Shown here one piece after another: positions 3,099 to 61,886 of a stretch of DNA of 64,000 nucleotides (positions within the stretch are counted from its first letter, which is position 1; the number at the start of each line of letters is the position of its first letter). The stretch comes from Chlorobiota bacterium (GTDB lineage: Bacteria; Bacteroidota; Ignavibacteria; Kapaibacteriales; UBA2268). The notes beneath the pieces were generated by a model, which worked only from the letters and a program-made list of their open reading frames with translations, had not been told where the DNA came from and did no database searches. The stretch covers positions 82,945 to 146,944 of the forward strand of contig JBFHIJ010000003.1 in assembly GCA_041596515.1 (NCBI GenBank). The letters run 5' to 3'. Position numbers and translations under genes: made by a program.

Positions 3099-3121
3099 TC
3101 TTGTATTGCTTTGTAGATTTT

Positions 3122-3276
3122 AACCAGAGATTGGCATTAGTAAAGATTGGAAAGCATTAAAGTTGTTAACTGGCAATGGGTGTAAAACCCCTTGTTCCAA
3201 TAAGTAAATACCTAAGATTTGCTTACAGTGCAAGTGAGCATGCTCCTCGCTTCTTTTTTGCTACAATCTCTGGGTT
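3122..3276 (-). repeat. dispersed ~175-nt repeat family, diverged copy in reverse orientation
   Basis: Contains GGTGTAAAACCCCTTGTTCCAATAAG and AGTGAGCATGCTCCT, which are reverse complements of the family core TTGAACAAGGGGTTTCAA and AAGGAGCATGCTTACT. Lies between the permease stop and a bidirectional terminator. Confidence 0.7.
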
Positions 3277-3317
3277 TATAATAAGGATTCGAGTTAATTC
3301 CCTTATTGTAGCAAAAT

Positions 3318-3350
3318 AAAAGCTACCTCTTTTGTAAAGAAGTAGCTTTT
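3318..3350. terminator. bidirectional rho-independent terminator (permease / metG convergent pair)
   Basis: AAAAGCTAC ... GTAGCTTTT stem with A- and T-runs on both sides, 27 nt from the metG stop. Confidence 0.6.
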
Positions 3351-3376
3351 ATTACACATAATGATATTTATACTTA

Positions 3377-5572
3377 CTACCTTACTTCTGCTCCACCACC
3401 TATTTCAGCTTTCTCAGGAGAAATGAAGGATAGTTTGCCATCCTCTGTATTTGCAGCTAATATCATGCCTTGAGATTCAATTCCCATAATCTTAACAGGT
3501 TTTAGATTGGCTACCATTACTACTGTTTTGCCAACTAAGTATTCGGGGGCGTAGTGCTCTGCTATCCCTGCAACAACCTGCCTTTGCTCATCACCAAGTT
3601 TTACTTGCAATTTTAATAGCTTTTTAGATTTTTTCACTTTTTCTGCTTCTACGATGGTAGCAGTTCTGAGCTTTACTTTCATAAAGTCATCAAACTCTAT
3701 TACTTGCGACAGTTCTTCGGCTTTTGCCTTTTTAGCAGCAATTTTAGCAGCCGCTACTTTTAGTGATTCTACTTCTTTTTCTACGAATTCATCTTCAATT
3801 TTTGTAAAAATCAAATCCGGCTTCCTAAATGTATGTCCTTCTTCCACAGTTGGGTAAGCTGCGAGATACCATATATCTCTAAGCTCCTTGCCATTGTTTG
3901 CTTCGCCTGTATACGACTGCACTTCCAATATCTGACTGATTCGCTTAGACGCGAAAGGGACTATCGGAGCAAAAATGATAGATAGAGTATGTACAAGCTG
4001 GACACAGAAGTAAAGTGATTTGGCTGCTCTGTCAGCATCGTCTTTTACTGCTTTCCATGGTTCCTCATCATTGAAATATTTGTTTGCCGCACGAGCTACA
4101 TTCATTGTTTCCATTATTGCATCGCGGAAACGGAATCGCTCGTAGCAACTTGATATTTTATTTAAGCCCGAGTGTACTGCTTTTATAACTACCAAATCAT
4201 TATCTGACAGCTCTAAATAGTCGTCTCTGTTGATTTCTTTATCAGGATTTTCATTCATAAAATCAATTAGATTATTCCATTTTGCAGGAACCCTTGCGTA
4301 TTTCTCAGGTAGAGAAGGCACTTTAGCATCAAAGTTTTTATGTGTAAACTGCAGAGAGCGATTTACAAAATTGCCGAAGATAGCTGCCAGTTCGTTATTG
4401 TTTTTACTTTGAAAATCTTTCCAGGTAAAGTCAGCATCTTTTGTTTCCGGAAAATTGGTTGCCAAGGTATATCTTAGTGCATCTATGTAATATGTACCAC
4501 TGTGGTTTGAAATAAAGTCACGAAGGTCAATGCTCCAGTTCTTAGATTTGGAGAATTTTTCGCCTTCAAGATTTAAAAACTCATGAGCGGGTACGTTATC
4601 CGGCAAGATATATCCACTGCGAGCATGAAGCATAGCTGGAAAGATAAGTGTATGGAAGACTATATTGTCTTTACCGATGAAAGCAAGATATCTTGTCTCA
4701 TCGTCCTGCCACCATTTTTTCCAATCGTTCGGTCTGTCATGTTGTTTCATAAATTCTTTAGTAGCAGTAATGTATCCTAAAACTGCATCGAACCACACAT
4801 AGAGGACTTTACCTTCTGCTTTCTTTTTATCTACACCGGGGATTTCTTTAATTTTGACACCCCAGTCTAAATCTCGCGTTATAGCTCGCTCAGCTAATCC
4901 CTGTTTTAGCCAACTACGAGTTTGTTGGATTACGTTATCTTTCCAGTATTTTGATTTTTCTTCAATATATTTCTCTAAGAACTCCTGGAACATATCGAAC
5001 CTAAAGTACCAATGAGTAGTTTTTTTAACCTCAGGAGTACCCCCAGAAACAGTCGAAATTGGATTTTTCAGTTCTATCTGATTATAGTAAGCACCACATT
5101 TGTCACACTGGTCACCTCTGGCTCCATCCTCGCCGCAATTAGGGCAAGTGCCTTCCACATATCTGTCCGGCAAAAACATTTTTGCTTTCGGATCATAAAA
5201 CTGCTCTTCTTCTTTATCAATCAAATATCCTTTTTCCAGGAAGTCACCAAAAAACTCTTTAGCAGTTTCATGGTGTGATTCGATAGAAGTTCTGGAATAA
5301 TTATCAAAACTCATCCCGAAAGCTTCAAAAGCTGCTTTATTTGCAGAGTGGTATTTATCTATAATATGCTTAGGAGTAACTTTTTCTTTTTCTGCAGAAA
5401 TGGTAATAGCCACGCCATGCTCGTCAGAACCGCAAACGTACAGGATGTCCTCTCCCTTCAATCTGGAGTAGCGGGCATAAATGTCAGCAGGCAAGTAAGC
5501 TCCTGCAGCATGCCCAAGATGGATATACCCATTAGCATAAGGCAAAGCCGAAGTAATCAGAGTTCTTTTCAT
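3377..5572 (-). CDS. metG: methionine--tRNA ligase
   Basis: HIGH-type HLGH, KMSKS-type KFSKS, Zn knuckle CPNCG...CDKCG. C-terminal EMAPII/Trbp111-like tRNA-binding domain (KVKLRTATIVEAEKV...GMILAA). An alternative upstream ATG lies at 5584. Confidence 0.95.
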   Translation of the reverse strand: MKRTLITSALPYANGYIHLGHAAGAYLPADIYARYSRLKGEDILYVCGSDEHGVAITISAEKEKVTPKHIIDKYHSANKAAFEAFGMSFDNYSRTSIESHHETAKEFFGDFLEKGYLIDKEEEQFYDPKAKMFLPDRYVEGTCPNCGEDGARGDQCDKCGAYYNQIELKNPISTVSGGTPEVKKTTHWYFRFDMFQEFLEKYIEEKSKYWKDNVIQQTRSWLKQGLAERAITRDLDWGVKIKEIPGVDKKKAEGKVLYVWFDAVLGYITATKEFMKQHDRPNDWKKWWQDDETRYLAFIGKDNIVFHTLIFPAMLHARSGYILPDNVPAHEFLNLEGEKFSKSKNWSIDLRDFISNHSGTYYIDALRYTLATNFPETKDADFTWKDFQSKNNNELAAIFGNFVNRSLQFTHKNFDAKVPSLPEKYARVPAKWNNLIDFMNENPDKEINRDDYLELSDNDLVVIKAVHSGLNKISSCYERFRFRDAIMETMNVARAANKYFNDEEPWKAVKDDADRAAKSLYFCVQLVHTLSIIFAPIVPFASKRISQILEVQSYTGEANNGKELRDIWYLAAYPTVEEGHTFRKPDLIFTKIEDEFVEKEVESLKVAAAKIAAKKAKAEELSQVIEFDDFMKVKLRTATIVEAEKVKKSKKLLKLQVKLGDEQRQVVAGIAEHYAPEYLVGKTVVMVANLKPVKIMGIESQGMILAANTEDGKLSFISPEKAEIGGGAEVR

Positions 5573-9802: not shown

Positions 9803-10087
9803 ATAATTCTCCCTAAAACTTATTATATAAAATCGAGTGATATAAAGCCTAAAACAGATTAAACATATTGCATGGAAACACATATTTATACAATATTGTT
9901 TATCTATTTTAATATTAGAATTATAATAGCTAAAATTTTAGTAATAAACAAGATATTATTTACAATATTACAATTTTCATCAATTAATACTTCATATTTC
10001 TACATAGTTATATTGATGTTATTTAAATTATAAACATTATTTAGGCACATATCGGTTAATATGCGGGGCGGTAAGGAATGATTTTAG

Positions 10088-10265
10088 TTCGGTGATGTCA
10101 TTAGATGCCATAAATAATGCTGTAAATGACCGTAGTATCAGGGCATATGCTTGTTTCTTCTGTAATACAATATTACGTAATGGCTTGTTGAACAAGGGGT
10201 TTCAACCCCCTTGCCATACAATGACTTTAGAGATTATTTATATTTTCAAATGACATTTTTAGGTT
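10088..10265 (+). repeat. dispersed ~175-nt repeat family copy
   Basis: GATGTCATTAG...GCTGTAAATGACCGTAG...ATTACGTAAT...TTGAACAAGGGGTTTCAACCCCC...CAAATGACATTTTTAGG aligns end to end with the other copies. Confidence 0.85.
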
Positions 10266-10410
10266 TAGTGAATTATGCTGATTTAGAATTGAGTTTAAGC
10301 TTATAAGTAGATTGAGTATTGAGATGAAAAAAATAAAAGACCGAATTTATCAAGGGTGTGTTTTTTCAAATGGTATGCGTAAAAACTAAATTCGGTCTTT
10401 ATTTAAACGT

Positions 10411-10746
10411 TTAATTTCCGGATTTGACCTTTAGCATCTTGGTGGCTCCTGAGTCAAATTCTATATATGCCGAGAGAAGACTTTCCTTGTCAGCTTCAAT
10501 TTTAATTTCTATAGAGTCAAGCTTTGTAGGAGCATCAAATCTTTGAGCTTTAATCAAGTTACCTTGATTATCAAAAAGCATAACAGAATTTGCTTTCTGC
10601 TCTTTGGCATTTTCAAAAACTACTTTTTCTGCATTCTTTGCTCTAGCGTATAATTCAACTTGAATTTTGCTATCTGTGGCTTCGCTTGCAAAAGTCAATA
10701 CTGCAGACAAGAAGAATGTCACAATCAATGATATATATACTTTCAT
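10411..10746 (-). CDS. hypothetical secreted protein
   Basis: Signal peptide MKVYISLIVTFFLSAVLTFA|SE. No motif recognised. A long-loop hairpin (AAAGACCGAATTT/AAATTCGGTCTTT, 10335-10400) plus a T-run lies downstream on the minus strand. Confidence 0.5.
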   Translation of the reverse strand: MKVYISLIVTFFLSAVLTFASEATDSKIQVELYARAKNAEKVVFENAKEQKANSVMLFDNQGNLIKAQRFDAPTKLDSIEIKIEADKESLLSAYIEFDSGATKMLKVKSGN

Positions 10747-11086
10747 AGCTCTTTTACAAATTTGATTTTAAATTTCAAAACAAATATATAAAGCTTTTTA
10801 TAATAAACCAATTTCTAAATGTTCTAACCGCATTATTGCAAAAGCACTTAACATTATCTTAACACAAGTTTTCTTAACAATTGGCGATTACGGTAATTAT
10901 TGGCATTATGCTAAAGATTTAGACAGAACCGCAGTCTAAATATAAATTTTCAACAAATTTTTATACTCTGCACAGCTTTGTTGTAAAACCACAATCAAAT
11001 TTCTTGCGAGACTTCTTTAATTTCATATTGACTTCTTTGCGGTGCAACTAAAAATATGAGTTAGTAAATTATAGTTTGATTCTACT

Positions 11087-11134
11087 AAAAAAGGAATGTA
11101 TTTTTGATGTTAAATACATTCCTTATTTCTATTT
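11087..11134. terminator. strong bidirectional hairpin terminator in a gene-less region
   Basis: 13-bp perfect stem AAGGAATGTATTT / AAATACATTCCTT with an 8-nt loop. A-run upstream and ATTTCTATTT downstream. Confidence 0.7.
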
Positions 11135-11189
11135 GCCTGGGTGTTATGCTTGTTCTTTAAATCCCCCACACACACATTGTGTGCTATAG

Positions 11190-11276
11190 TTATAGGTGGG
11201 TAACTACTTGAGTTACTACTAGGGCAATCAGCCCCATACCTATTAGTATTTTTACTTTTAATCTGTGCAATGTCAT
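11190..11276 (-). CDS. candidate small hydrophobic peptide (28 aa)
   Basis: AGGAG lies 8 nt upstream of the ATG (11274-11276). It encodes MTLHRLKVKILIGMGLIALVVTQVVTHL (one TM-like helix). The hairpin terminator at 11087-11134 lies downstream. The ORF is below the ORF-track size cutoff. Confidence 0.25.
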   Translation of the reverse strand: MTLHRLKVKILIGMGLIALVVTQVVTHL

Positions 11277-11642
11277 ATAAAATACTCCTAAGAATCTCTG
11301 ACATGTACAAAAAATGGATTTCCTTTACGCTCTTATATTAATATACTCGCTTTCGTTGAATTTGTTGCAAAATATAATCCAAAATAATTATATACTATTA
11401 CTTGACTAATTATGGACTAATAACTATTATCAATAAAAGCCAACGCAGGTTTCAATTATCATAAAAGATTAAGATATTTCAAATAATATAGAATTATATG
11501 CAGTGTAATTCTACTATTTTAATAGAAATTGCAGTGTTTTGCAGTTAGTTTTGCAACTATAATATTCTTGTTACGTTTTAAGTAAATGCCCAATTATTGC
11601 TTATCTTAATGATGATTGTTTTTGTTCACATTTATTTGTATA

Positions 11643-12554
11643 ATGATAATGTATAATCTTACTGCTATAAATATAAAAGACCTGAAGACTGAAATGCTTC
11701 ATAACTTAAAATATCCCAATACAGAGGAAGGATTTAATCAATACAGATTAGATTCGTTAGACTCTCTGTGGGTAAAGTATCAGGAACGACTTAGCAACTG
11801 CAGAAAGGAGTCGTCTGAGGGTAATGTACATAAATTTAGAATCAGTAATCGCAGGTTTTTAGCTTCAGTTGACATGATTAGTACTATTTATACATCTAAG
11901 TATTTGGAAGAATTACGAAAATTGTTAAAACTGCAACTTAAAATATTTTCTAATCTTCGAGACACTCAGGTGATGATTAACTCTATAACTAAGATTAGAA
12001 AAAACTATTCAGTTTTTGATTTTTTCTATTATGAGCTACTTGCTTGGGAGCAATCTTATATAAAAAAAATAGAAAAGAAGATAAAAAGAGTGAGTAAAAA
12101 AGAGATAGAAGCTCTTATCTTCTTTATAAGAATGGATTTAGATGCTACTTTTACTAAAGATAGTGCTACTTTTGAAGAAGCCATTCAAGTAATAAGTGAT
12201 GTGTTTGCTGACTTACAGATAAAATTGCAATCTGTGGATAGTGCAATCCCACAAACAATTCATGATGTTCGATTGCAGTTTAAAAAATTTAGATATATGG
12301 TAGAAGCATTTGTGGTAGCCAATGATTTGCCTGAAGATTATATTAAATCTTTAGCTGACTACCAGTCCTTAATGGGCGAAGTGCAAGATGCGGAAGTCCT
12401 CATTAGTCGCTTCAGGGAGTATGTTTATGCTCAGGATAATCCGGGAGACATTGTTTGGATCAATGCAATTAAAGTACTGGAAGAGCGACTAACTGAAAAA
12501 ATTCGTAATTTTATGGAACACAAAGATAGATTAAATACTTTTTGGAATCTATAA
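11643..12554 (+). CDS. CHAD domain-containing protein
   Basis: All-helical composition with two CHAD-like histidine/basic motifs, VHKFRISNRRF and IHDVRLQFKKFRY. Start is uncertain (TTG 11616, ATG 11643 or 11649). Confidence 0.6.
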   Translation: MIMYNLTAINIKDLKTEMLHNLKYPNTEEGFNQYRLDSLDSLWVKYQERLSNCRKESSEGNVHKFRISNRRFLASVDMISTIYTSKYLEELRKLLKLQLKIFSNLRDTQVMINSITKIRKNYSVFDFFYYELLAWEQSYIKKIEKKIKRVSKKEIEALIFFIRMDLDATFTKDSATFEEAIQVISDVFADLQIKLQSVDSAIPQTIHDVRLQFKKFRYMVEAFVVANDLPEDYIKSLADYQSLMGEVQDAEVLISRFREYVYAQDNPGDIVWINAIKVLEERLTEKIRNFMEHKDRLNTFWNL

Positions 12555-16932: not shown

Positions 16933-17170
16933 ATGCCGAACTATGTTTTGAACTTGGATGTTTTTAACTCAGGAACATAAAGCTAACCACAAATAATATA
17001 TGTTTATACTAAATACCTGCTGTAATCTTGGTACAATTGACTATATTTGTAATTCTATTTTTGACGAGATAAAAATAATTTATCCCCAAAAATATGGAAA
17101 AAGTTTTGCAGAATCATTATATCTACTTATATTTGTTTTCTCTATAAAATAGTATTTTGGAGTTAAGGCA

Positions 17171-17350
17171 ATGGCTAAGAAAGATCAGAGAATCCAAGTT
17201 ACGTTGGAATGCACAGAAGCCAAAAAAAATGGCGTTCCTGCATCTAGATATACTACTATGAAAAATAAGCAAAATACTCCGGAACGTATTGAATTAAAAA
17301 AATACAATCCATTTTTGCGTAAGCACACAGTGCATAAAGAAATCAAGTAG
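17171..17350 (+). CDS. rpmG: 50S ribosomal protein L33
   Basis: My own translation gives [59 protein letters not shown]. This closely matches recalled L33 sequences (...TKNKKNTPERLELKKYNP...HKEIK). At 59 aa it is absent from the ORF track. Confidence 0.9.
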
Positions 17351-17377
17351 TTACGGTTTCTCAAAAAAGATTTAAAG

Positions 17378-17415
17378 AGGCAAGCAGATTTTAAAATTCG
17401 CTTGCCTTTTATCAT
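17378..17415 (+). terminator. rho-independent terminator of rpmG
   Basis: AGGCAAGC / GCTTGCCT stem followed by TTTATCATTT. Confidence 0.7.
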
Positions 17416-17531
17416 TTCTATTTGCTTCTCTCGGGTATGACGGCAATGGCTGAAACAAATAATCTGATATAAGATATTTTTTCCTTACATTGCATATCCT
17501 GAATATTTATAACTTAAATGATAAGACATAC

Positions 17532-18794
17532 ATGGATAAATTAGTTATAGAAGGTGGTCATAGACTATCCGGCAGAATAAAAGTTTCAGGTGCAAAAAAT
17601 GGCTCTTTGGCTCTAATGCCTGCAGCTTTACTTGCACCCGGCATATACCATTTGAAAAATACACCTAACTTACGCGATGTGTGGACGATGTCCCGCTTAT
17701 TAGGTTCTTTAGGTGCATTCGCAGAGCTTAACGACGACGAACTCTTTTTGGATACAAGCAAAATAAACAGTGTAGAAGCTCCTTATGAGCATGTAAAGAA
17801 AATGCGTGCTTCGTTTTATGTGTTAGGTCCTTTAGTGGCTCGCTACGGAGAAGCAAGAGTTTCTCTGCCCGGCGGTTGTGCGTGGGGGCCACGTCCTGTG
17901 GATCTGCACTTAAAAGGTTTAGAAAAATTAGGTGCAGAAGTTTCGCTCGAAAAAGGCTATGTGATTGCTAAAGCTAAAAAACTTAAAGGTGCAAAGTTTC
18001 ACTTTGATGTATCAAGTGTAGGAGCTACCGGCAATGTGCTTATGGCGGCAACACTTGCCAGCGGTACAACTGTCCTCTCAAACGCTGCTGCTGAACCTGA
18101 AATAACAGCTTTAGCAAGAATGCTTGTCAAAATGGGAGCAAAAATAGAAGGCATTGGTACAACTGAGCTTATAATCGAAGGTGTAGACGAACTAAGACCG
18201 GTAGATGAAACTACAATCCCGGATAGAATAGAAGCTGCGACTTATCTAATGGCAGCTGCTATGACTGGTGGAAATATCGAGTTAGAAAATGTAAATCCGT
18301 ATCACCTGTCTGCAGTTATTGCGAAACTGGAAGAGTCAGGTTGCGAAATAGATGTAAATAGTGATACAATCAGACTTCAGGCTGGAAAAGAGATTATACC
18401 TGTAGACATTACAACTTCGGTCTATCCTGGCATCCCTACCGATATTCAAGCCCAGTGGACTGCTTATATGCTTATGGCAAAAGGGACTTCCAGAGTTACA
18501 GACACTGTTTATTTTGACCGATTTAAGCATGTACCGGAACTTACTCGCTTAGGTGCCGACATTGAAGTAGTGGATAATACAGCTTTAGTCAAAGGCGGCA
18601 ATAAATTAGAAGGCGCTACAGTTATGTCTTCAGATTTGAGAGCAAGTGCTTCCTTAATCTTAGCCGCTCTTGCTGCTAAAGGTTCTACAGAGGTACTCAG
18701 AGTTTATCACCTTGACAGAGGATATGAGAAGCTAGAAGAGAAGTTGAATTCTGTAGGTGCAAAAATCAGAAGAATACGTACAGAACTTATCTAA
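17532..18794 (+). CDS. murA: UDP-N-acetylglucosamine 1-carboxyvinyltransferase
   Basis: MDKLVIEGGHRLSGRIKVSGAKN N-terminus. Active-site loop LPGGCAWGPRPVDLH. 420 aa counted from ATG 17532. Confidence 0.95.
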   Translation: MDKLVIEGGHRLSGRIKVSGAKNGSLALMPAALLAPGIYHLKNTPNLRDVWTMSRLLGSLGAFAELNDDELFLDTSKINSVEAPYEHVKKMRASFYVLGPLVARYGEARVSLPGGCAWGPRPVDLHLKGLEKLGAEVSLEKGYVIAKAKKLKGAKFHFDVSSVGATGNVLMAATLASGTTVLSNAAAEPEITALARMLVKMGAKIEGIGTTELIIEGVDELRPVDETTIPDRIEAATYLMAAAMTGGNIELENVNPYHLSAVIAKLEESGCEIDVNSDTIRLQAGKEIIPVDITTSVYPGIPTDIQAQWTAYMLMAKGTSRVTDTVYFDRFKHVPELTRLGADIEVVDNTALVKGGNKLEGATVMSSDLRASASLILAALAAKGSTEVLRVYHLDRGYEKLEEKLNSVGAKIRRIRTELI

Positions 18795-18824
18795 CTAGCT
18801 TTTATAAAGCCTATACTTTTAAAA

Positions 18825-18860
18825 AAGAAGATATACCTGAAAATGGTATGTCTTCTTTTC
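18825..18860 (+). terminator. rho-independent terminator of murA
   Basis: AAGAAGATATACC / GGTATGTCTTCTT stem followed by TTC. Confidence 0.7.
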
Positions 18861-18867
18861 GATTTAT

Positions 18868-18957
18868 CCCGGAATTTGTCATTAGAAAACAAGCTTGCTC
18901 CTTGGTTCTACGAGCATTTACAGCATCTAACTGCAAGGCCATGTTAAGGGATTTGGG
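18868..18957 (-). repeat. dispersed repeat family, short rearranged/internally deleted copy
   Basis: Starts CCCGGAATTTGTCATTAG (TIR). Continues CAAGCTTGCTCCTTGGTTCTACGAGCATTTACAGCA, the reverse complement of the family core TGCTGTAAATG..CGTAGAACCAAGGAGCA.GCTT. About half the normal length. Confidence 0.6.
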
Positions 18958-19040
18958 TTTATTGTAATCGGTGTATGGGATTACTTGTAGAAACTGAGTA
19001 TATTTGCAAGAGATATATTAACTTTGGTTAGAGAATATTT

Positions 19041-19925
19041 ATGTTTTATATGATTATTTCATTTTTGCTTTTCTTGGCTATATTGTACGGAACATTTATT
19101 TTGGCATTTAGCAAATCAAAACGTAAAAAAGGGACTATGATGCAGGCAGAGCACAAAACGTTTCTGCAAAATAATGTTGTTTTTTATAACTCTCTTACTG
19201 ACACCGAAAAATTATCTTTTGAATCGCGTGTACAGGATTTTTTAGCAAACTGTAAAGTGACAGGCATAAGCTGTGATATAGATGATACAGATAGGCTTTT
19301 AGTTGCATCCAGTGCGATAATACCTGTCTTTTATTTCCCTGAGTGGCGATATTACAACTTAGAGGAAGTGTTGGTTTATCCAGATAGATTTAATGATAAA
19401 TATGGAGTTGGAGCTGCGGATAGCAACATACTTGGCATGGTTGGAACAGGTGTGATGAACGGCAAAATGATTATTTCAAAAAAATCGCTTCAAGAGGGGT
19501 TCTCTATAGAAAATGACAAAAAAAATACTGCTATACATGAATTTGTCCATCTGATAGACAAGACTGACGGAGCTGTAGACGGGGTGCCAAAAGCACTTCT
19601 ACAAAAGCAATATACAATCCCGTGGTTAGACCTCATTAATCGCAAAATTGAAGAAATATCAACTCATAACTCAGATATTAATCCATACGGTGGTACAAAC
19701 AATGCAGAGTTTTTTTCCGTAGCGTCTGAGTACTTTTTTGAGAGACCTCGCCTGCTCAAAGAAAAACACCCAGAGCTATATACAATGTTAGAAAAAATAT
19801 TTTCAAGCGAAATGAGCAAAAAAGAACTTAAGACCTATCATATAAAGTCTATAGGTAGAAATGACTCATGCCCATGCGGTTCAGGCAAGAAGTATAAAAA
19901 ATGTTGTGGCATCAGGAAAGCATAA
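19041..19925 (+). CDS. M90 (MtfA-like) zinc metallopeptidase with N-terminal TM helix and C-terminal SEC-C motif
   Basis: HEFVHLID (HExxH) in an MtfA-like context (NAEFFSVASEYFFERP). C-terminal CPCGSGKKYKKCCG. Confidence 0.7.
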   Translation: MFYMIISFLLFLAILYGTFILAFSKSKRKKGTMMQAEHKTFLQNNVVFYNSLTDTEKLSFESRVQDFLANCKVTGISCDIDDTDRLLVASSAIIPVFYFPEWRYYNLEEVLVYPDRFNDKYGVGAADSNILGMVGTGVMNGKMIISKKSLQEGFSIENDKKNTAIHEFVHLIDKTDGAVDGVPKALLQKQYTIPWLDLINRKIEEISTHNSDINPYGGTNNAEFFSVASEYFFERPRLLKEKHPELYTMLEKIFSSEMSKKELKTYHIKSIGRNDSCPCGSGKKYKKCCGIRKA

Positions 19926-20425
19926 CTAAAACATAAAATACGAATTGTGTTAAAGTGGAGTTCGCACAAAACACATAAATCTAAAGAAGGTGAGTAAACT
20001 TGTATTTTGAAAAGAAGAATAAAGATAATAAATGATTACGTTAACGCTTATATTCCTTTGATTATTTATAATCCCCAAAAGCCTATGAGCTATAAGACAT
20101 TATAAATAAAAACTACCTATTATGGTTGACAAATGCTACTTTTCGCACACCTTAACTTCCAGCTTTGTTCCTCGAATGAAAATATAGTATATTGATAAAC
20201 TTGCAATATTGAGCGATATTGCATATATTAAAACATGAAATGTAATCATGCATTTTTATCATAAAAAGACCTCTATTAGAAGTATTACTTCAATATTTTA
20301 CTTTCCCATTGTCCCTAAAAAGATTGCGTATCATCTTCAGTAGGGTGAAATGGGTTAAATATTCTGTGTCTTTGTATATTCCTCAACTTGATATATTTTT
20401 TTATACAATACAAAAAGGTGGAGAA

Positions 20426-20935
20426 ATGGCCAGAAAAGAAAAAAGCATCGAATTATTAAACAAAGCGATTTCTGATGAGCTTACAGCAGTGCATCAGTAT
20501 ATGTACTTTCATTTTCATTGCGATGACCAAAGTTATGACTTATTAGCTCAGCTTTTCAAAATGACTGCTATTCAAGAAATGATGCATATTGAGATGTTAG
20601 CTGAAAGAGTTCTATTCCTGAAAGGGGAAGTAGAGATGACGACTTCTGAACCAGTTAAAAAAATTCACAATATAAGAGAAATGTTAGAAATTGCAGTTAA
20701 AATGGAAGAAGATAGTGCTACTGATTATAACTTGTGGGCTAATGAGTGCTCTGCAAATGCAGATTCCGTATCTAAAAAACTTTTTGAGTCTTTAGTTGAA
20801 GATGAAGAAAAGCACGGAGATCAATTTGATGTAGAATTAGAAAACTTAAGTAAATTTGGGGATAACTATCTTGCATTGCAATCTATTGAAAGAAGTAAAA
20901 CTATTTCAATGGCCGGAATGCCTCCAAAAGCGTAA
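20426..20935 (+). CDS. bfr: bacterioferritin / ferritin-like di-iron protein
   Basis: GGTGGAG RBS before ATG 20426. Four-helix ferritin ligand pattern (DELTAVHQY, IQEMMHIE, EEDSATDY, EDEEKHGD). Confidence 0.8.
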   Translation: MARKEKSIELLNKAISDELTAVHQYMYFHFHCDDQSYDLLAQLFKMTAIQEMMHIEMLAERVLFLKGEVEMTTSEPVKKIHNIREMLEIAVKMEEDSATDYNLWANECSANADSVSKKLFESLVEDEEKHGDQFDVELENLSKFGDNYLALQSIERSKTISMAGMPPKA

Positions 20936-20975
20936 TATTTTTTATTAGTATTGTTTGATAGACGCTAAAATCTAC

Positions 20976-21010
20976 AGAGGCACAATGTTTATTGTGTCTC
21001 TTATTTTTTT
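20976..21010 (+). terminator. rho-independent terminator of bfr
   Basis: AGAGGCACAAT / ATTGTGTCTCT stem followed by TATTTTTTT. Confidence 0.7.
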
Positions 21011-21041
21011 GCTTTCGTAGTACTTGCTTTGTAATATCTTT

Positions 21042-21914
21042 CTATTTCTCTCTTAGCACTTTCATTTGTATGAGTGAGAAGACTATTAATATCATAAATA
21101 GAGTGTAAGCAATAGCTGAGGCGTATCCCATCAAATCAGACTCTTTAAAGGCATTTTCGTACACTTGGTATACTAATGTGGTCGTAGAGTGTAAAGGCCC
21201 TCCCTTGGTCATTACAAACACTTCTACAAAGACCTGAAAAGACTTGATGCTATTGATAATTAACACAAACATTAGAGTTGGCCGCAGTAGAGGGAAAGTT
21301 ATTTCCCAGAATTGCCTCATGGGAGATGCACCGCTTAGCTCAGCGGCTTCATATAAATCATTTGAAATAGTTTGCATGCCGGCAAGAAAAAGTACCATAT
21401 AGTAACCCGATGCCATCCAGATATCCATTGCCATGATAGACATGAGCGAGGTAGAAGGTTCTGCCAGCCACCCCCTTTCCGTTCCGCTAAAGCCAAGCAT
21501 CTGCACAAGTGAATTTACATAACCATCTATTGAGTAAAGATTAGTAAAAATCAGTGCAATCACGACCAAAGCGGTTACCGATGGCATAAAATAAGCTGCA
21601 CGAAAAAAATCTTTCAGTCTAATAAACTTCTTATTCAGCACATTAGCCATAAATATTGCTAAAGCAGTAGTTATAGGCACGCTACCAAGAGTAAAGATGC
21701 TGGTATTAGTAAGTGCTTTCCAAAACAACTCATCGCTAAGCATATTTTTATAATTATCTAAACCTACCCAAAAAGCTTCCCCGGTTAAAGTATTATACTC
21801 AGTCATGCTCATATAAGCAGAGTACAAAAGCGGATAAAACCAAAAGACTAGAAAAGTAAGAAGCCATGGCAAGAGCATAATTAAGGTATTGAGCTTAGAT
21901 TTTGCATTGTTCAT
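21042..21914 (-). CDS. carbohydrate-type ABC transporter permease (MalF/UgpA-like), orphan
   Basis: Six hydrophobic segments. EAA loop EAAELSGASPMRQFWEITFPLLRP. No partner permease, binding protein or ATPase nearby. Confidence 0.8.
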   Translation of the reverse strand: MNNAKSKLNTLIMLLPWLLTFLVFWFYPLLYSAYMSMTEYNTLTGEAFWVGLDNYKNMLSDELFWKALTNTSIFTLGSVPITTALAIFMANVLNKKFIRLKDFFRAAYFMPSVTALVVIALIFTNLYSIDGYVNSLVQMLGFSGTERGWLAEPSTSLMSIMAMDIWMASGYYMVLFLAGMQTISNDLYEAAELSGASPMRQFWEITFPLLRPTLMFVLIINSIKSFQVFVEVFVMTKGGPLHSTTTLVYQVYENAFKESDLMGYASAIAYTLFMILIVFSLIQMKVLREK

Positions 21915-22513
21915 CAGGCAAAGTGCTCCATCAGCATTTTATATAACAGTTGCAAAGGGAGACCTACTATGTTATAGTAGCACCCTTCTATTCTATTTAC
22001 AAACACAGCTCCAAAGTCATCCTGGATGCCATAAGCGCCGGCTTTGTCCATTGGTGAGCCTGTAGCGACATAAGCATCTATCTCACTATCGCATAACTCA
22101 CGAAAACTTACTTCGGTAGCTTCATAACTTACATTGCCCTTATCCGCAAAGCTGTCATAAATGGCAACTCCTGTAAAAACAGTATGCGTGTTATCACTAA
22201 GAGTTCTCAGCATTTTTTTAGCATCGTTCTCATCTAAAGGCTTTTCGAGAACGAATTCGCCTAATACGACGATGGTGTCCGATCCAATAAAAACAGCATT
22301 AGAATTACTCATATCAGCCGCAGCCTTAGCCTTCTTTGAGGCAAGCTGCATAACATACTCTGCCGGTGGCAGACAGTCCGAATTAACTTCCTCAATGCTG
22401 GCAGGCATTATAGAAAATTCCAGCCCCAACATCTCCAAGAGGAACTTGCGTCTGGGAGATTGGGAGGCAAGAATGATAGGCTTGTTTATATCAATAATCT
22501 GATTAATATTCAT
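21914..22513 (-). CDS. maf: Maf-family nucleoside triphosphate pyrophosphatase
   Basis: ILASQSPRRKFLLE and GAYGIQD motifs. Its stop overlaps the permease ATG by 1 nt (TGATG). Confidence 0.85.
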   Translation of the reverse strand: MNINQIIDINKPIILASQSPRRKFLLEMLGLEFSIMPASIEEVNSDCLPPAEYVMQLASKKAKAAADMSNSNAVFIGSDTIVVLGEFVLEKPLDENDAKKMLRTLSDNTHTVFTGVAIYDSFADKGNVSYEATEVSFRELCDSEIDAYVATGSPMDKAGAYGIQDDFGAVFVNRIEGCYYNIVGLPLQLLYKMLMEHFA

Positions 22514-22932
22514 TGCTAAAACTTGAATTATTCGGACAAAAGGAATAAAACAAAGATAGCAAATATATCTTAAACCTGTGAGGCTCTATTTGCAAAATAG
22601 GCAATAGTAATGCTCGCAGGCAATTTATATTAAAACAGCACTTTTATTTGCACACCATATTTTTGATATATCACATCTTTTGTGTTTATAACACCCGCGA
22701 AGGCTTCGAAAGTGTTATTTATCAATAGCGACATAACTTGACACGCAAGTGCCTATATTTAACAGCTATTATATCAAACAGATTGCAATTTTATACGTAT
22801 ATATAAATATAAATTATTTTTAGAATACATAAAAGAAAATCCGGTTTATTACAATTGTTTTATTTATATTATGCAATAATATTATATTCAATGCAAATAT
22901 TTTATTTGCTTTTTTGCTATTAGGAGTACATC

Positions 22933-23538
22933 ATGGGAAACGAAAACGTTTATAGATATTTTCTTTGGGCACTTGCTAGAGAATACTGGCAAGCACAGGG
23001 GAATAATGAAGAATTAGGTTCTCCTGGTACAATTGAACGATTTAATACAATCAATGACTTAAGTATTCTTAAGGTTATTAAGTTGAATTTTTTGGCTGTA
23101 GCAATGTCTCTACAGCCTGAAAATGAAGAACACAGCATATATAATAACTACTTCCGTAGTTTCAGAGCATTACAATATGGCCCCGTAGAAATGAATTTCT
23201 GGGATTTCCTTCAAGAAACAACCCCAGATGATACTATCTACTGTGATTTTGATTCTACACAAATTAATTTAAATGATCAAAGTTTTTTAGCAGTAGAAGA
23301 GGAATTGAGGAATAATTGTGAAGAAGAAGCGTCAGGTTTATCCACACGTATTGATAGAATTATCGAAATTATGAGACAAGAACATAGAGTGCTTTTTACT
23401 AAGAATGCGAACACATTAGTTGATATTACACATAAATGGGATACTTGGAAAATTCCGTTCAGAAAAGCAAAATTTTATCAAAAGAAATCATATCCAATAG
23501 AACTTAATGATTTTCAGCATTCTCCTGTTTGGAGCTAA
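22933..23538 (+). CDS. hypothetical protein (ORFan, 201 aa)
   Basis: AGGAG lies 7 nt upstream of the ATG. No signal peptide, TM helix or known motif. First gene of an AT-rich two-gene cassette. Confidence 0.5.
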   Translation: MGNENVYRYFLWALAREYWQAQGNNEELGSPGTIERFNTINDLSILKVIKLNFLAVAMSLQPENEEHSIYNNYFRSFRALQYGPVEMNFWDFLQETTPDDTIYCDFDSTQINLNDQSFLAVEEELRNNCEEEASGLSTRIDRIIEIMRQEHRVLFTKNANTLVDITHKWDTWKIPFRKAKFYQKKSYPIELNDFQHSPVWS

Positions 23539-23541
23539 AGA

Positions 23542-25770
23542 ATGATTGAAGAAGTTAATAATCAGTTTAATGGCTTATTAGCATTAGCTACATTAGATTC
23601 AAACTTTGATTTAGAAAGCCTTGATTCAGATCAAATGTACAATTCAGAATTTGTAACTAAGTTGTCTAATTTTCTGGAAAACTATAATGAAATGCTTCTG
23701 GGTAATTCTTATTATAAATTTGATCAAGTCATTCCAAAACTAGAGACAATACATAAAAAATTAGATGCGAAGTTATCAAGCTTTAAAACTTCTACTGATA
23801 ATGAAGAAGGTGCTTTAGAGTTAATACTTGAAGACATTGAAAAATTTGAGACAAAATATCGAAATGTACATGATTGTCTTAAATCAATTATTGATTTAGA
23901 GCTAAGCAAGTCAGAAACAAAAGTAGATTATCAAAATATTGTTAAAATATTGAAAAGTAAAAGGGATAATTTTGAACAAGTTCAATTAACTGAAGATGAA
24001 TACAGCTTAAAACAAATATTCAATTATATGGATGAGATTATTAGTTTAATTCCTAATAGAAATCTTGATGATCATATTCCAAACAAGACAAATGTTAATA
24101 TTTTGATAAATGAAATATTATCTATTGCAATGAATGAATCTCTTGCTCAATTACAACTACTGAGTATAATAATGCCTTTCTTGATCCAATATGCTGTTAT
24201 GCATAACAAGCGAGAAGAGCAAGAAAAGATAATCATTAATGTAAAAAATCAAGTTGTTTACTATAGAAAGTTTTTGGATATCATTAATATTATACTCAAA
24301 GATACAATTTCTGTATTAAAAAGAACCAGTGTCAAATATGATGGGAAAGTAAACCCTATTTGGAATATTCTAACTGCTTCAAAAATTATTAACATGAATG
24401 ACGAAATTATTGAATTAGATGAATATAAGATATTTGAGGACATATACAATTTTCAAACACTCATATCTCTCAATCTTCTCAATATTTCAATTGACCATAA
24501 CTTTTTCTTATATAAATTTGCTTTTGACGATAATATAGAATTGCTTAAAACTATACAGAAACAATTCGGAACTTCGAAATTTGTTTCAACCAATTTAGTT
24601 ATAAATAAGTATAAATTTTTATTGTCTAAAATCATCCAGGAATTTCAATCAAATAATGAAGAGACTGATTATATAGTTTTTGATAAAGAGAATAACTATT
24701 CAAGAATATCAGATTATAGTAATCTGAATGTAAAATTTGTACCTCCTAATAATACACAAACCTTAGATTTTAATAATCTTGATTTTCATTTGCTTAAAAG
24801 CAAAATTGATTATTATAAAAACACACTTAACCATAAAGCCTTAGAAGGAATAAGGGATAAGTTCAAGTTCTCTTTAAATAATAAAAAGTCAGAATGCATT
24901 TATAACCAATATTGTTATCAGGTAGATTTAGTTTATATATGCAACAACTTGTTTGGTAGTTTAGTAAATGAAGCTAAAGAAAAGCCAAATATTCTAATCA
25001 AAGATATTCATAAAGCCTATAAAGAATTGACAGATATCAATAAAGAATGTAATGTCAACAACTATTATATGGAGCGTAAATATTTAGAATTTTTACTAGA
25101 TGAAAGACTTGTAAATGTACAAAATGATTTTGAGTTTAAAAAGTATTATGATTTCGCAAATGACTTATTAGAAAAATTTGAGTCTAACTTAAAATGGTGT
25201 AAAGATATCAGATTTTTACCTTTTCAAATTCCCTACGAACAAACTCTATATCATGAAGAAAGTAATTCTGCAAATGTATTATCTTTAGCATCGGGTAATT
25301 CTGACCCAATAGACTATCAAAAAGAAGCAAATTTTTTGTCTAAATTTAAAAATCAAATGCAATCATTAGTTTCAATCAGAAATAATAACAAATCATTTCA
25401 AGAACTATCCACTCTTAAAGAGAAAATAAAAGACTCAGAAAAGAATTCTATCCAAATATTGAGTATCTTTTCTGCTATCGTTGTTTTTTCTGCAGGAGCG
25501 GTAGAGGTAAGTGTAGGTCTTATTAAAGGTTTGAAGGATTCAAATGCATTTTTAAATAACTTCTTGGGTATATTTTTAGGTTTTGGTGGAGCTTTATCTA
25601 TATTTGCAATGGTTATAAGTTTTGTTTTCTATAAAAGTCATAAACCAACAAAATTTGAAGTCATTAGATTATCTATCTTTACAATAATTTTATCCTTTGT
25701 TTTACTTTCTCTGATATCGTTGCATAGTGGTAAGAGTATCGCTGAATTGTTTTGTATGTTATGGAAATAA
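23542..25770 (+). CDS. hypothetical protein (ORFan, 742 aa): long helical N/K/I-rich region + 3 C-terminal TM helices
   Basis: GGAG RBS. Starts 3 nt after the upstream stop. C-terminal hydrophobic segments ILSIFSAIVVFSAGAVEVSVGLI, FLGIFLGFGGALSIFAMVISFVF, LSIFTIILSFVLLSLISL. No catalytic motif recognised. Confidence 0.55.
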   Translation: MIEEVNNQFNGLLALATLDSNFDLESLDSDQMYNSEFVTKLSNFLENYNEMLLGNSYYKFDQVIPKLETIHKKLDAKLSSFKTSTDNEEGALELILEDIEKFETKYRNVHDCLKSIIDLELSKSETKVDYQNIVKILKSKRDNFEQVQLTEDEYSLKQIFNYMDEIISLIPNRNLDDHIPNKTNVNILINEILSIAMNESLAQLQLLSIIMPFLIQYAVMHNKREEQEKIIINVKNQVVYYRKFLDIINIILKDTISVLKRTSVKYDGKVNPIWNILTASKIINMNDEIIELDEYKIFEDIYNFQTLISLNLLNISIDHNFFLYKFAFDDNIELLKTIQKQFGTSKFVSTNLVINKYKFLLSKIIQEFQSNNEETDYIVFDKENNYSRISDYSNLNVKFVPPNNTQTLDFNNLDFHLLKSKIDYYKNTLNHKALEGIRDKFKFSLNNKKSECIYNQYCYQVDLVYICNNLFGSLVNEAKEKPNILIKDIHKAYKELTDINKECNVNNYYMERKYLEFLLDERLVNVQNDFEFKKYYDFANDLLEKFESNLKWCKDIRFLPFQIPYEQTLYHEESNSANVLSLASGNSDPIDYQKEANFLSKFKNQMQSLVSIRNNNKSFQELSTLKEKIKDSEKNSIQILSIFSAIVVFSAGAVEVSVGLIKGLKDSNAFLNNFLGIFLGFGGALSIFAMVISFVFYKSHKPTKFEVIRLSIFTIILSFVLLSLISLHSGKSIAELFCMLWK

Positions 25771-26022
25771 ACATTCTTCCCCCCACCCAAAAAAAATCCC
25801 TACCAAAAATAAAATAATTTGTATTAACAGAAGTTTCTTTATATTAGAGGATTATACTGTTTATATAGTTAGGGGTAGTTATATAAATGGTTATTTCAAA
25901 AAACAGGCGGTGACTTTCCTTTTTGGTTTGCCTTGACTTTTGCGTTTTGGCTAATCCCTCAGGCTGTGGCACTCGCACATTTATAATCGACATTCACACA
26001 TATTCTTATGGAGGCGATTTTT

Positions 26023-27180
26023 ATGTATAAGTTGCTTTTATTGCTATTTATTTTATCTATGCAGTTGACTGCCTTTGCAGCTAAGCCGGTGATAGATATT
26101 GCTCCCCTTCCGAGCGACGAACGTCTGGAAATTTGGGAAGAATCTGAAGAAATCTTTACCGAAAAGGTAATGGAATACTACCATAAGGCTACTTTGCTTT
26201 ATATGCAGGCGAAACTCTCCGGCTTCGAAACCAATGAGCTGATACTTCCGCCTAGCTTTGAGCAGCTTTCCGATATGGAAATTCAAACTATTAAAGATTA
26301 CCACGCTTTGGCGATGAAATATTTCGCTATTCTCGAATCTTTGCCTGAGATTGGTAACCGTGAGCAAATCGACAAACTTCGCAAAGAACTGTTTGTGCAG
26401 ATGAATGCTAACAACGAAATGGAAAAACGTCAATACGAGCTGGCGTTGCAGCATAATGATCTGGAGTTTTATAAAAAGAACTGGAAGGCTGCTCGCGAAG
26501 AGGCTGCAAAGCTAAATCGAAAGTTAGACTCTGCCACGGCGGCTATGGATAAATATCTTATCCAGCGCGAAGGTGAAATCAGAGCCTCATACGAGCGCAA
26601 TGTTCGTAGGTTTACTCCTGTATTTTCTATTGGTGGCACTGCTAATAAGTACTATTTCCGAGAAGACGGAATTAACGATAAAATTGCTTTTGGTGGACAG
26701 ATTACTTTCAATCCTGAACCTGTATTTGGTTTTGGAAGATATTTAGAGATTTTTGGTGAGTATATTGTGCCAAGATTTGTAACTGACCAAATCACTCAGG
26801 GTGTTAAGCTTAGTGACAAATGGAACTCTCAACTGTATACTATCGGCCTAAATCTTAAATTTGATAATGTAATAGACCTAAAGGACTTTACCGGGGGCAT
26901 AAAAATAGGTGCCGGACATTTCTGGGGCAGTGGCAATTTAGATAATGTAGATTATGGAGCTGCCACTTTCGAGGGAGAAATGATAAGATTTGAGATGTTT
27001 GTAAGAAATGCAGATATATCACTTCCTTTAGAGTTGTTTGTAGCGTATAACAGCTATTTTGCATCGGAGTTCGTTTTTGATTCCCGCTTGCAATACCTAA
27101 ATTTTGGTGAGCCTCAATTTAACGTACTTACAATGGGTGTTAGACTTGCTTTATGGAAAACTCCTGTATATGATAATTAA
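26023..27180 (+). CDS. hypothetical secreted protein: helical/coiled-coil N-half + putative beta-barrel C-half
   Basis: GGAGG lies 8 nt upstream of ATG 26023. Signal peptide MYKLLLLLFILSMQLTAFA|AK. The C-terminal half shows an alternating hydrophobic beta-strand pattern. Confidence 0.55.
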   Translation: MYKLLLLLFILSMQLTAFAAKPVIDIAPLPSDERLEIWEESEEIFTEKVMEYYHKATLLYMQAKLSGFETNELILPPSFEQLSDMEIQTIKDYHALAMKYFAILESLPEIGNREQIDKLRKELFVQMNANNEMEKRQYELALQHNDLEFYKKNWKAAREEAAKLNRKLDSATAAMDKYLIQREGEIRASYERNVRRFTPVFSIGGTANKYYFREDGINDKIAFGGQITFNPEPVFGFGRYLEIFGEYIVPRFVTDQITQGVKLSDKWNSQLYTIGLNLKFDNVIDLKDFTGGIKIGAGHFWGSGNLDNVDYGAATFEGEMIRFEMFVRNADISLPLELFVAYNSYFASEFVFDSRLQYLNFGEPQFNVLTMGVRLALWKTPVYDN

Positions 27181-27192
27181 TCGGGAGATAAA

Positions 27193-28137
27193 ATGAGATA
27201 TATAATATTTACAATATTGCTTACTGTATGCCTCACAGCTCAGGATATGGAGCAGGCTATGCGTTGGATTAAACTTGGCAACACATACCGCATAAGCCAA
27301 AACTATCCTAAAGCAGGTGAATATCTTAAGAAGGGCTTAGTAGAAATACAAAACTGTGACGACTACACCGCAAGATACTGGGAAGCAGTTGCCAATGAAT
27401 ATTACGCTTACCTGTATGAAGATATAAAAATGTACAACGAAGCAAAACAGCACTTTGACAAAGCTCTTTCTATTTACGAAACAGTGATAACGCAAAAGGA
27501 TGGAAGTCCTTATGCTTTGGCGCAGGTGATTAGGCAGCGAAAATTAAGGATTGATTCTCTAATTCAAGCAGAGAGTGGACTTTTTCTGCAAGTTGTAAAA
27601 GAAGAGCCTGCCGAGCAAATTGATGAAAAGGCAAGCGCCGGAGATGATATCCAGATACCGGATACAGTGTTTTTAGAAGCAGATAGCAAATCCCTCACTT
27701 TTGATAATCAGAAGCTGAAAAGCTTTAACTTCATTATTCCTGAGAGAACAGAAACTATCTCTGCAAGGAGTAACCGCATCAAAGAGATATCACCAATGAT
27801 TACCCGTTTGCCAAATCTAAAATCACTTGATTTGGAAGATAATCGCATAAAAGATATTTCAGCGACTGTGGCGGATATGGATAAATTAGAATATCTGAAT
27901 CTATCTCGAAATAAAATCAAAGATTTGCCGGATGCAATAGGAGACATGAAAAGCCTTAAGTATCTTGATTTATCAGACAATCGTTTGAAAGAGTTGCCGG
28001 CGAACCTAAACAATCTAAAAAATCTGAAGGTTTTGGATTTGAGTAAAAACAAGATTCCATTCACCTCAGTAGAAAATCTGATAAAACAGCTCCCAAATAC
28101 TAACATAATACACGACGAATACTCGCTCGCTAAATAA
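27193..28137 (+). CDS. secreted TPR-like + leucine-rich-repeat (LRR) protein
   Basis: Signal peptide. At least 6 consecutive LRRs (LPNLKSLDLEDNRIKDI / LEYLNLSRNKIKDLP / LKYLDLSDNRLKELP / LKVLDLSKNKI). GGGAGA RBS. Confidence 0.7.
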   Translation: MRYIIFTILLTVCLTAQDMEQAMRWIKLGNTYRISQNYPKAGEYLKKGLVEIQNCDDYTARYWEAVANEYYAYLYEDIKMYNEAKQHFDKALSIYETVITQKDGSPYALAQVIRQRKLRIDSLIQAESGLFLQVVKEEPAEQIDEKASAGDDIQIPDTVFLEADSKSLTFDNQKLKSFNFIIPERTETISARSNRIKEISPMITRLPNLKSLDLEDNRIKDISATVADMDKLEYLNLSRNKIKDLPDAIGDMKSLKYLDLSDNRLKELPANLNNLKNLKVLDLSKNKIPFTSVENLIKQLPNTNIIHDEYSLAK

Positions 28138-28142
28138 AAAAC

Positions 28143-28179
28143 AGCTCGTCTTATCGCTAGAGGCGGGCTTTTATTTTTC
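28143..28179 (+). terminator. rho-independent terminator
   Basis: AGCTCGTCT / AGAGGCGGGCT stem (G:U pairs) followed by TTTATTTTT, 6 nt after the stop. Confidence 0.75.
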
Positions 28180-61856: not shown

Positions 61857-61886
61857 CCTCGGTTTAAAACCGGGGTTTTTTATTTT
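61857..61886. terminator. GC-rich hairpin terminator abutting DUF3800 gene stop
   Basis: CCTCGG / CCGGGG stem with a 7-nt loop. TTTTTTATTTT follows on the plus strand and an A-run lies upstream (a T-run on the minus strand). Confidence 0.55.

Follow-up and report, generated by a model that had tools for sequence, protein, structure and literature searches.

Panacea Systems and the Kapaibacterium Cassette

Antitoxins of the Panacea (PanA) type neutralise many unrelated toxins (PanT), several of which act on membranes (Kurata et al. 2022, PMC8832971). The toxin cluster that matters most here is T4, whose member from Helicobacter sp. 13S00482-2 has a coiled-coil-like N-terminal region and C-terminal transmembrane (TM) helices, depolarises E. 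coli cells, which SYTOX does not enter, and is countered by the cognate PanA (PMC8832971). The same cluster lists gp52 of Streptococcus phage P9, which is toxic, and p53 of phage phiNIH1.1. Clusters T5 and T8, with many Bacteroidetes members, are MazF-like according to that paper, where the tested T1 members are described as mRNases. A stand-alone Panacea protein has also been reported to neutralise a TM toxin through contact with the part that immediately precedes its TM segment (Ernits et al. 2023, PMC10440598). Here we analyse a two-gene cassette (positions 22933 to 25770) in a stretch of 64,000 nt, referred to below as the window, from contig JBFHIJ010000003.1 of a Chlorobiota bacterium (GCA_041596515.1), in which a Panacea gene is followed by a gene for a much larger protein with three predicted TM helices at its C-terminus. 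The two genes very probably constitute a PanA-type pair, and the cassette is best filed as a large-format form of the known PanAT class, being neither an ORFan nor a catalogued defence system.

The first gene (22933..23538, plus strand), recognised from the open reading frame (ORF) listing and its Panacea matches, specifies a protein of 201 aa, the putative antitoxin or gatekeeper. The second (23542..25770, plus strand), also from the ORF listing, specifies a protein of 742 aa. Only 3 nt lie between them, the TAA of the first (23536-23538) being followed by 'aga' and then by the ATG at 23542, and each is preceded by a Shine-Dalgarno sequence: AGGAG (22922-22926) is 6 nt ahead of the first ATG and GGAG (23531-23534) 7 nt ahead of the second. 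The two are probably co-translated. An initial annotation, made from the DNA letters, had already described two same-strand ORFs with a 3-nt gap and a Shine-Dalgarno sequence before each, and the coordinates and motifs read from the sequence agree with it.

The likeness to T4 PanAT pairs (that of Helicobacter, gp51/gp52 of P9, and p52/p53 of phiNIH1.1, which combine DUF4065 and DUF334) begins with gene order, the antitoxin gene coming first and either overlapping the toxin gene or ending a few nt short of it. In both cases the first gene specifies a stand-alone Panacea protein (hhalign probability 95.7 %), and the second protein consists of a cytoplasmic, helical or coiled-coil N-terminal part and three C-terminal TM helices, with a related TM1-TM2 module that carries an ILG(I/V)FS(A/S).V motif. 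The T4 toxins sampled here are, however, only 269-319 aa long, whereas the window protein has 742 aa and its family about 580-800 aa, and full-length homology, including a DUF334-type N-terminal region and a similar size as in one FlaGs/jackhmmer cluster, was not found. Reports of T4 come mainly from Firmicutes, Epsilonproteobacteria and phages of both, whereas the present family was seen in Kapaibacterium and in one Bacteroides protein. The PanA:PanT(D11) pair of B. choladocola (PMC10440598) also couples a stand-alone Panacea protein to a toxin with a TM region, the predicted contact being with the segment that precedes this region, but the toxin there is small. Residues Y56 and H120 are needed in that PanA, and plausible counterparts here lie in the motifs PYG.V and (S/T)H.W, an inferred correspondence and not a residue-by-residue alignment. 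The same general logic, a cytoplasmic regulatory part and a few membrane-collapsing TM helices, is used by PycTM of Pycsar, by the TM effectors of CBASS and retrons, and by RexB, but the present protein has no cyclic-nucleotide-binding or other signalling domain, and the synthase or partner genes of those systems are absent. PADLOC models for PycTM, the Pycsar membrane effector, match 2-4 of 71 relatives of the large protein (best E 3.1e-6) and leave the window protein unmatched.

Identity of the Small Protein

Both proteins had been annotated as ORFans without an assignable motif, a description that does not hold for the smaller one. It matches Panacea-type models in three libraries: Pfam SocA_Panacea PF13274 (E 0.0015, 19.8 bits, profile positions 24-113 of 113), NCBIfam SocA_antitoxin (E 0.0099, 15.6 bits, with an equivalog cut-off of 190), and phrog_1281 (E 2e-6). 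The matches become clearer in its relatives. Two closer ones (P0003 and P0004, 54 % and 36 % identical) both carry precomputed PF13274 matches, as do the partners at loci L006 and L007, and when the window protein and nine other partners of the large-protein family (alignment A5) were scanned against Pfam, all ten matched PF13274, with a best E of 7.3e-8. Across these ten, the motifs LK..KL.F, PYG(P/H)VE and (S/T)H.W..W are conserved, with LK..KL.F, YG.V and H.W..W invariant. Their profile also aligns with that of annotated DUF4065 PanA proteins from Streptococcus, Listeria and Moraxella phages over 133 columns (E 8.6e-9 at the hhalign probability given above).

We treat the small protein as PanA-type because of the matches in three libraries, the PF13274 matches of its counterparts, and the profile match to phage DUF4065 PanAs; judged by these similarities, it is a stand-alone Panacea (DUF4065/SocA-like) protein. 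Searches of PDB sequences, with single proteins and with profiles, returned nothing significant for the small or the large protein. An AlphaFold model of PanA, built from only three sequences, had a predicted local distance difference test (pLDDT) score of 47.7 and was not used.

The Large-Protein Family and Its Pairing with PanA

The large protein, rich in L, N, I and K, has no match in Pfam, NCBIfam, PHROGs, PADLOC or PDB sequences, and word-seeded searches with the single sequence or with a 3-sequence profile recovered only the protein itself, low-complexity words having saturated the candidates. The ORFan label nevertheless falls here too, since HMMER, run exhaustively on 1.84 billion cluster representatives (clusters at 50 % identity), retrieved 130 relatives at E <= 1e-3, 28 of them at <= 1e-10, so that the family comprises at least 130 such clusters. 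Most relatives are 580-660 aa long (around 600), and the phmmer matches span query residues from about 400 to 730, some starting near 230. A scan of metagenomes for the family gave six loci, and a scan of genome contigs only the contig of L002. The family has been seen in Kapaibacterium and in one protein of Bacteroides ilei (WP_072531685.1), and beside integrases with an Arm-DNA-bind_5 domain. The Bacteroides protein, sought in order to assign a toxin cluster, was not found in the accessible part of Dataset S1 of Kurata et al.

In all 14 loci with DNA upstream of the large gene (the window, L001, L002, L004, L005, L006, L007, which shares its contig with L013, L009, L010, L011, L012, L023, L024 and L025), the gene next to it on that side is a Panacea gene of the same strand. 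These loci span the whole similarity range of the relatives; L026 duplicates the gene neighbourhood of L025. The upstream partners are 176-201 aa long, and their genes either overlap the large gene or are separated from it by up to about 93 nt. Partners at the most distant three loci (L023, L024 and L025) have weak precomputed PF13274 matches only, and that of L010 was recognised by sequence similarity only. The initial annotation had proposed co-occurrence across genomes as a check on the pair, and the genes were not separated in any of the 14 loci. At the metagenomic locus L010 the Panacea gene (3048-3583) is split into overlapping ORFs of 86 and 99 aa, either by a frameshift or by an assembly error, and the adjoining family member of 597 aa is intact.

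When ten relatives of the large protein were scanned against Pfam only noise was seen, except for P0057 (L023, 4001-6286), in which the TM helices are followed by a fused DUF4468 domain (TBP-like fold). At the locus of another relative (L007, 7014-7565; L008, 2107-2682), DUF4468 is encoded by a gene of its own, just downstream and on the opposite strand. Such fusion and proximity hint that the family is functionally connected with a partner that is secreted or periplasmic.

Membrane Module and PanT Cluster T4

Three hydrophobic segments occupy the C-terminus of the large protein, as the initial annotation had proposed. Hydropathy places TM1 at residues 636-660 (25447..25521, plus strand), TM2 at residues 673-697 (25558..25632, plus strand) and TM3 at residues 709-731 (25666..25734, plus strand); the corresponding AlphaFold helices for TM2 and TM3 run from 667 to 696 and from 704 to 729. 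TM1 contains the best-conserved motif of the family, SIQILSIFSAIVVF in the window protein (family consensus IEILGIFSAIV.F). By charge counts the TM2-TM3 loop, KSHKPTKFEVI, is the most positively charged, which under the positive-inside rule fits a topology with the N-terminus predicted inside and the C-terminus outside.

The family profile (alignment A3) was compared by hhalign with that of eight T4 PanTs (alignment A6) of 269-319 aa, which were taken from annotated phage genomes and have PanA neighbours. They match with a probability of 93.6 % (E 2.1e-7, score 61) over 62 columns covering TM1-TM2, including the common motif ILG(I/V)FS(A/S).V.F, which in the phage PanTs reads ILGVFSSFVF. Because membrane helices can match by composition alone, two controls were run: reversed profiles scored 16.5-16.9, and the T4 membrane region with its columns shuffled 20 times scored at most 33 (E 1.7e-3). 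A score of 61 is far above both, and the membrane modules of the two families are therefore probably homologous. A tblastn search of the phage genomes carrying T4 genes with a family member gave no match.

In the phage loci sampled (L015-L020), the DUF4065 plus T4 pair was found directly after a lysin or cell-wall hydrolase gene in the Streptococcus/Listeria phages P9, Javan235, phiNIH1.1, LP019 and Javan179. In three of these it precedes a virulence-type gene, specifying streptodornase (P9), speL (phiNIH1.1) or phospholipase A2 (Javan179).

Cytoplasmic Domain and Predicted Structure

The large protein was predicted with AlphaFold2 from the alignment of 71 sequences (A3), giving an all-helical model with a mean pLDDT of 71 and a predicted template modelling (pTM) score of 0.65. 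This agrees with the initial annotation, which had it as mainly helical. Residues 1-230 (23542..24231, plus strand) form a poorly conserved helical N-terminal extension, uncertain in the model (pLDDT 33-57), with low occupancy in the family and only 5-20 % identity to the two other Kapaibacterium alleles. From residue 300 to 742 the model is confident (pLDDT 75-98 over 410-590, and mostly >90 over 410-640). Coverage by phmmer, conserved columns and the AlphaFold model together delimit a conserved all-alpha domain, predicted to be cytoplasmic, at residues ~231-591 (24232..25314, plus strand). Its family motifs are DH..F, K..FL..K, Y..N...S, N..P..K, WC, FQ.P and S(G/S)..P..Y, and the near-invariant columns of the family are K356, K363, Y465, N468, S472, Q500, N507, P510, K513, W552, Q562, S584, P589, F643, F649 and F688. 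A long stalk helix follows at residues 592-635 (25315..25446, plus strand) and continues unbroken into TM1, the model having a single helix from 592 to 663.

Foldseek searches of this model against PDB and BFVD gave nothing significant (best E 0.03 and 0.055, TM-score at most 0.3), the insignificant neighbours being generic 14-3-3/TPR-like helical matches. Confident homology to a housekeeping family, which would have spoken against the initial annotation, was thus found neither in Pfam nor in PDB sequences nor by Foldseek.

PanA antitoxins pair with dozens of unrelated toxins, but the membrane PanTs described to date are small, whereas here a related membrane module is joined to a very large, conserved cytoplasmic domain with no known relative, an architecture that would let the toxin itself sense something. 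Neither Pfam nor PADLOC has a model for the family, no structure has been solved for it or resembles it, and it could add a sizeable uncharacterised group to the toxin-antitoxin and defence catalogue.

Allele Replacement at a Fixed Chromosomal Site

The pair occupies one site, between maf and a secreted-protein operon, in three Kapaibacterium genomes (the window, L001 and L002), and all three have intact large ORFs there, of 645-794 aa, despite protein identities of 26-30 %. Flanking proteins of the window and of L002 (Candidatus Kapaibacterium) share 91-98 % identity (Maf 95.5 %, permease 97.9 %, ferritin 97.6 %, the 390-aa protein 97.9 % and the leucine-rich repeat (LRR) protein 96.5 %), whereas identity within the cassette is 36 % for PanA and 29 % for the large protein. 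L001 is more distant, with flanks 71-83 % identical to those of the window, yet its PanA reaches 54 %. Since PanA is thus closer to that of the distant L001 than to that of the near L002, the alleles do not follow the genome tree.

The BLASTn alignment of the window with L002 covers 20193-23097 (89.6 %) and 25780-28172 (94.9 %), and delimits a hypervariable block (23098..25779, plus strand) made up of panA from about codon 56 and the entire large gene. Within this block only an 81-nt island (25416-25496) aligns, and it encodes the TM1 motif. The proteins display the same contrast: identity between alleles is 72-84 % over PanA residues 1-57 and 17-51 % over the remainder, and residues 626-660 of the large protein are 60-63 % identical, with most other segments at about 5-30 % (maximum 44 %).

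On the left, maf, the spacer and panA as far as about codon 55 (position 23097) remain similar to L002. Against L001, for which the backbone is about 75 % identical, positions 22774..22932 are 78-100 % identical at the nucleotide level and 22874-23094 mostly 82-100 %, and some 100 nt around the panA start codon are identical in all three genomes. On the right, nucleotide comparison of the three genomes reveals an ultra-conserved boundary (25780..25880, plus strand) that begins 10 nt past the stop of the large gene. It is almost identical in all three (90-97 % against L001, falling to 62-85 % further downstream), opens with a C-rich tract followed by an A-run, and might serve to anchor recombination, to regulate the 390-aa gene downstream, or both. 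The ultra-conserved edges are about 100-320 nt long, and because they bound the variable block, the simplest reading is that the core would be replaced as a cassette by homologous recombination within them. As a natural instance of cassette replacement the locus is a clean one, its breakpoints being mapped, and PanA residues ~56-201 are the part that travels with the partner.

The composition of the cassette supports the initial annotation, which had estimated it to be atypical. Its G+C (0.275) is the minimum among all 2.8-kb segments of the window (mean 0.359, standard deviation 0.026), and G+C at third codon positions is 0.25 for the panA-like gene and 0.21 for the large gene, compared with 0.33-0.42 for most neighbouring genes and 0.28 for ferritin. 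The horizontal acquisition suggested on this basis holds in part only: with the same site occupied in three genomes it is not a one-off insertion, but backbones that are nearly identical have come to carry different content there by replacement. Among the eight relatives' loci with enough flanking DNA for comparison, the pair is clearly lower in G+C than its surroundings in five (L001, L002, L006, L007 and L009). Tyrosine integrases with an Arm-DNA-bind_5 domain lie beside relatives at L005, L007 and L010, a MobA/VirD2 relaxase is present at L009 and a Schlafen-like ATPase at L025, and L010 also carries genes for a HigB toxin and a HEPN protein; primase/VapE genes likewise adjoin relatives. 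The pair behaves as accessory, fast-evolving DNA, and displays traits typical of type II toxin-antitoxin systems, namely patchy distribution, association with mobile elements, and rapid co-divergence of the partners, the large gene being exchanged as one block with the variable part of panA.

A rearrangement was also seen between the window and L002: the block ferritin-permease-maf-cassette-390-aa-LRR is inverted relative to the M90-peptidase/SEC-C gene, and positions 17000-19911 of the window match 15845-12935 of L002 in reverse.

Proposed Mechanism and Alternative Explanations

We consider it probable, though by no means assured, that the cassette is a PanA-PanT-type toxin-antitoxin module of the abortive-infection kind, gated by PanA and depolarising the membrane. 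The large protein would insert with its N-terminus inside the cell, and PanA would bind the cytoplasmic part ahead of TM1 and hold it inactive, as in the model for stand-alone Panacea proteins (PMC10440598). A trigger, for which phage infection or loss of PanA are candidates, would lift the block; its sensor may be PanA or the cytoplasmic domain, which is large and evolves fast. Once released, the large protein would oligomerise via its stalk and TM helices and dissipate the membrane potential, halting growth or killing the cell, as reported for the Helicobacter T4 PanT. The biological role could be abortive infection and defence, or the stabilisation of mobile DNA, and at the fixed Kapaibacterium site the variable core would be exchanged between lineages by recombination in the two ultra-conserved edges. 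The abortive-infection effector proposed in the initial annotation is supported in kind by the Panacea partner, the pairing at every locus and the T4-like membrane module, but PADLOC offers it no match.

Several points weigh against a PanA-gated toxin. Toxin activity of the large-protein family is inferred from its likeness to T4, where the shared module is just 62 columns of membrane helices and nothing aligned outside it; because the other ~590 residues have no relative by Pfam, PDB sequence or Foldseek searches, toxicity is extrapolated from a small shared part. Typical type II toxins are much smaller than a 'toxin' of 600-800 aa. Nor did every T4 member prove toxic in E. coli, the one from C. 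difficile being an exception, and the P9 member is listed only as 'Toxic' and not as a verified pair (PMC8832971). The PF13274 score of the window PanA (19.8 bits) is below the gathering score of 25.7. PADLOC-DB v2.0.0 has no match at E <= 1 for either window protein, nor any for the ten PanA partners; plasmid, phage (tblastn with a family member) and viral-contig collections gave no match to the family, and tblastn of PanA against phages gave none. Finally, if the split Panacea gene of L010 is real, the large protein is tolerated there without its partner.

That last observation would fit a protein that is harmless until triggered, and so an anti-phage sensor-effector rather than an addiction module, in which the cytoplasmic domain directly recognises a phage component and PanA, no labile antidote, remains bound as a sensor or allosteric regulator. 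The stand-alone Panacea study (PMC10440598) itself proposes Panacea as a sensor and not a mere plug, the cytoplasmic and N-terminal parts evolve fastest (5-24 % identity between alleles), alleles are swapped within a conserved backbone, and relatives adjoin defence or toxin-antitoxin genes (HEPN, HigB) and sit on integrative or mobilisable elements. With no PADLOC match and no recognisable sensor fold in the Foldseek searches of PDB and BFVD, and with sequence alone unable to tell it from a toxin-antitoxin module, we regard this explanation as rather unlikely. A bolder version would make the family a new, self-contained anti-phage sensor-effector, in which the ~590-aa domain detects a phage cue, the stalk opens the T4-type module, and Panacea serves as a safety catch. 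Homologous recombination at the two edges in Kapaibacteria (the promoter and first 55 panA codons on one side, ~100 nt past the stop on the other) would then shuffle alleles of the sensing core among lineages, making the site a dedicated allele-exchange locus for immunity specificity. This proposal is speculative, and we hold it unlikely but still credible.

A non-toxic role is harder to reconcile with the data. The large protein might be an envelope scaffold or signalling protein, similar to EzrA or MapZ, or a partner of secreted DUF4468-type proteins, with Panacea as its chaperone or regulator. The all-helical domain with generic 14-3-3/TPR-like neighbours, the DUF4468 domain of P0057 and the separate DUF4468 gene beside another relative, and the secreted and LRR proteins encoded next in the window all point that way. 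The Foldseek matches are insignificant, however, 29 % identity amid flanks of 95-98 % is unlike housekeeping scaffolds, the distribution is patchy and tied to mobile elements, and the invariant partner comes from a family otherwise known as antitoxins, all of which makes such a role improbable. SocA is an adaptor that delivers SocB, a DnaN-binding toxin, to the protease ClpXP. The small protein shares the Panacea/SocA domain family with this type VI toxin-antitoxin system of Caulobacter, and could by analogy be a proteolytic adaptor that presents its large partner to ClpXP or a different protease. SocA lends its name to the Pfam family, and the NCBIfam SocA_antitoxin model gives its weak match (E 0.0099), but the 15.6 bits are far from the equivalog cut-off of 190, the partner here is a membrane protein unrelated to SocB, and tested PanAT pairs form complexes typical of direct neutralisation (PMC8832971); we think an adaptor function very improbable. 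As for AT-rich, non-functional or decaying DNA with accidental long ORFs, the very low G+C, the N/K/I-rich composition and the failure of word-seeded searches to recover anything but the protein itself might suggest it. Intact ORFs of 645-794 aa at the site in three genomes despite their low identity, 130 homologues with conserved motifs, and a confident structure prediction for residues 300-742 leave it scarcely any credence, and conservation of the reading frame together with the family-wide motifs refutes it.

Sequence Features and Genes around the Cassette

The cassette is preceded by a leader (22774..22932, plus strand), conserved with L001, that contains the AGGAG sequence and, 24-40 nt before the first codon of panA, a perfect palindrome (GCAAATA-ttt-TATTTGC, 22893-22909), which falls within the stretch that is identical in the three genomes. 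The leader is probably a promoter/operator region, and the palindrome a possible operator or promoter element. Scans for sigma-70 promoters and terminators around the cassette gave nothing above chance, an Rfam scan of 22300-26100 had no match, no tRNA was found near the cassette, and no direct or inverted repeat is common to the two boundaries of the variable block.

The gene-less spacer after maf was correctly noted in the initial annotation, and measures 419 nt. According to Pfam the upstream neighbours specify Maf (E 2e-62) and an adjacent ABC permease. Downstream are genes for the 390-aa protein, with a signal-peptide-like N-terminus, and for a protein with TPR and LRR repeats.

Two other parts of the window are low in G+C. 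At its end (61880-63888; 0.27-0.28) there are two minus-strand genes, one for a DUF3800 protein (61880-62632, by Pfam) and the other, from the ORF listing, for a 409-aa protein without a Pfam match (62659-63888), and this stretch may be another accessory island. The second part (10000-12554; 0.29-0.31) has almost no ORFs between 10000 and 11600, the sole one of at least 90 aa (10411-10746, minus strand) encoding 111 aa without a Pfam match, and it ends with the gene for a CHAD-domain protein (11616-12554, by Pfam).

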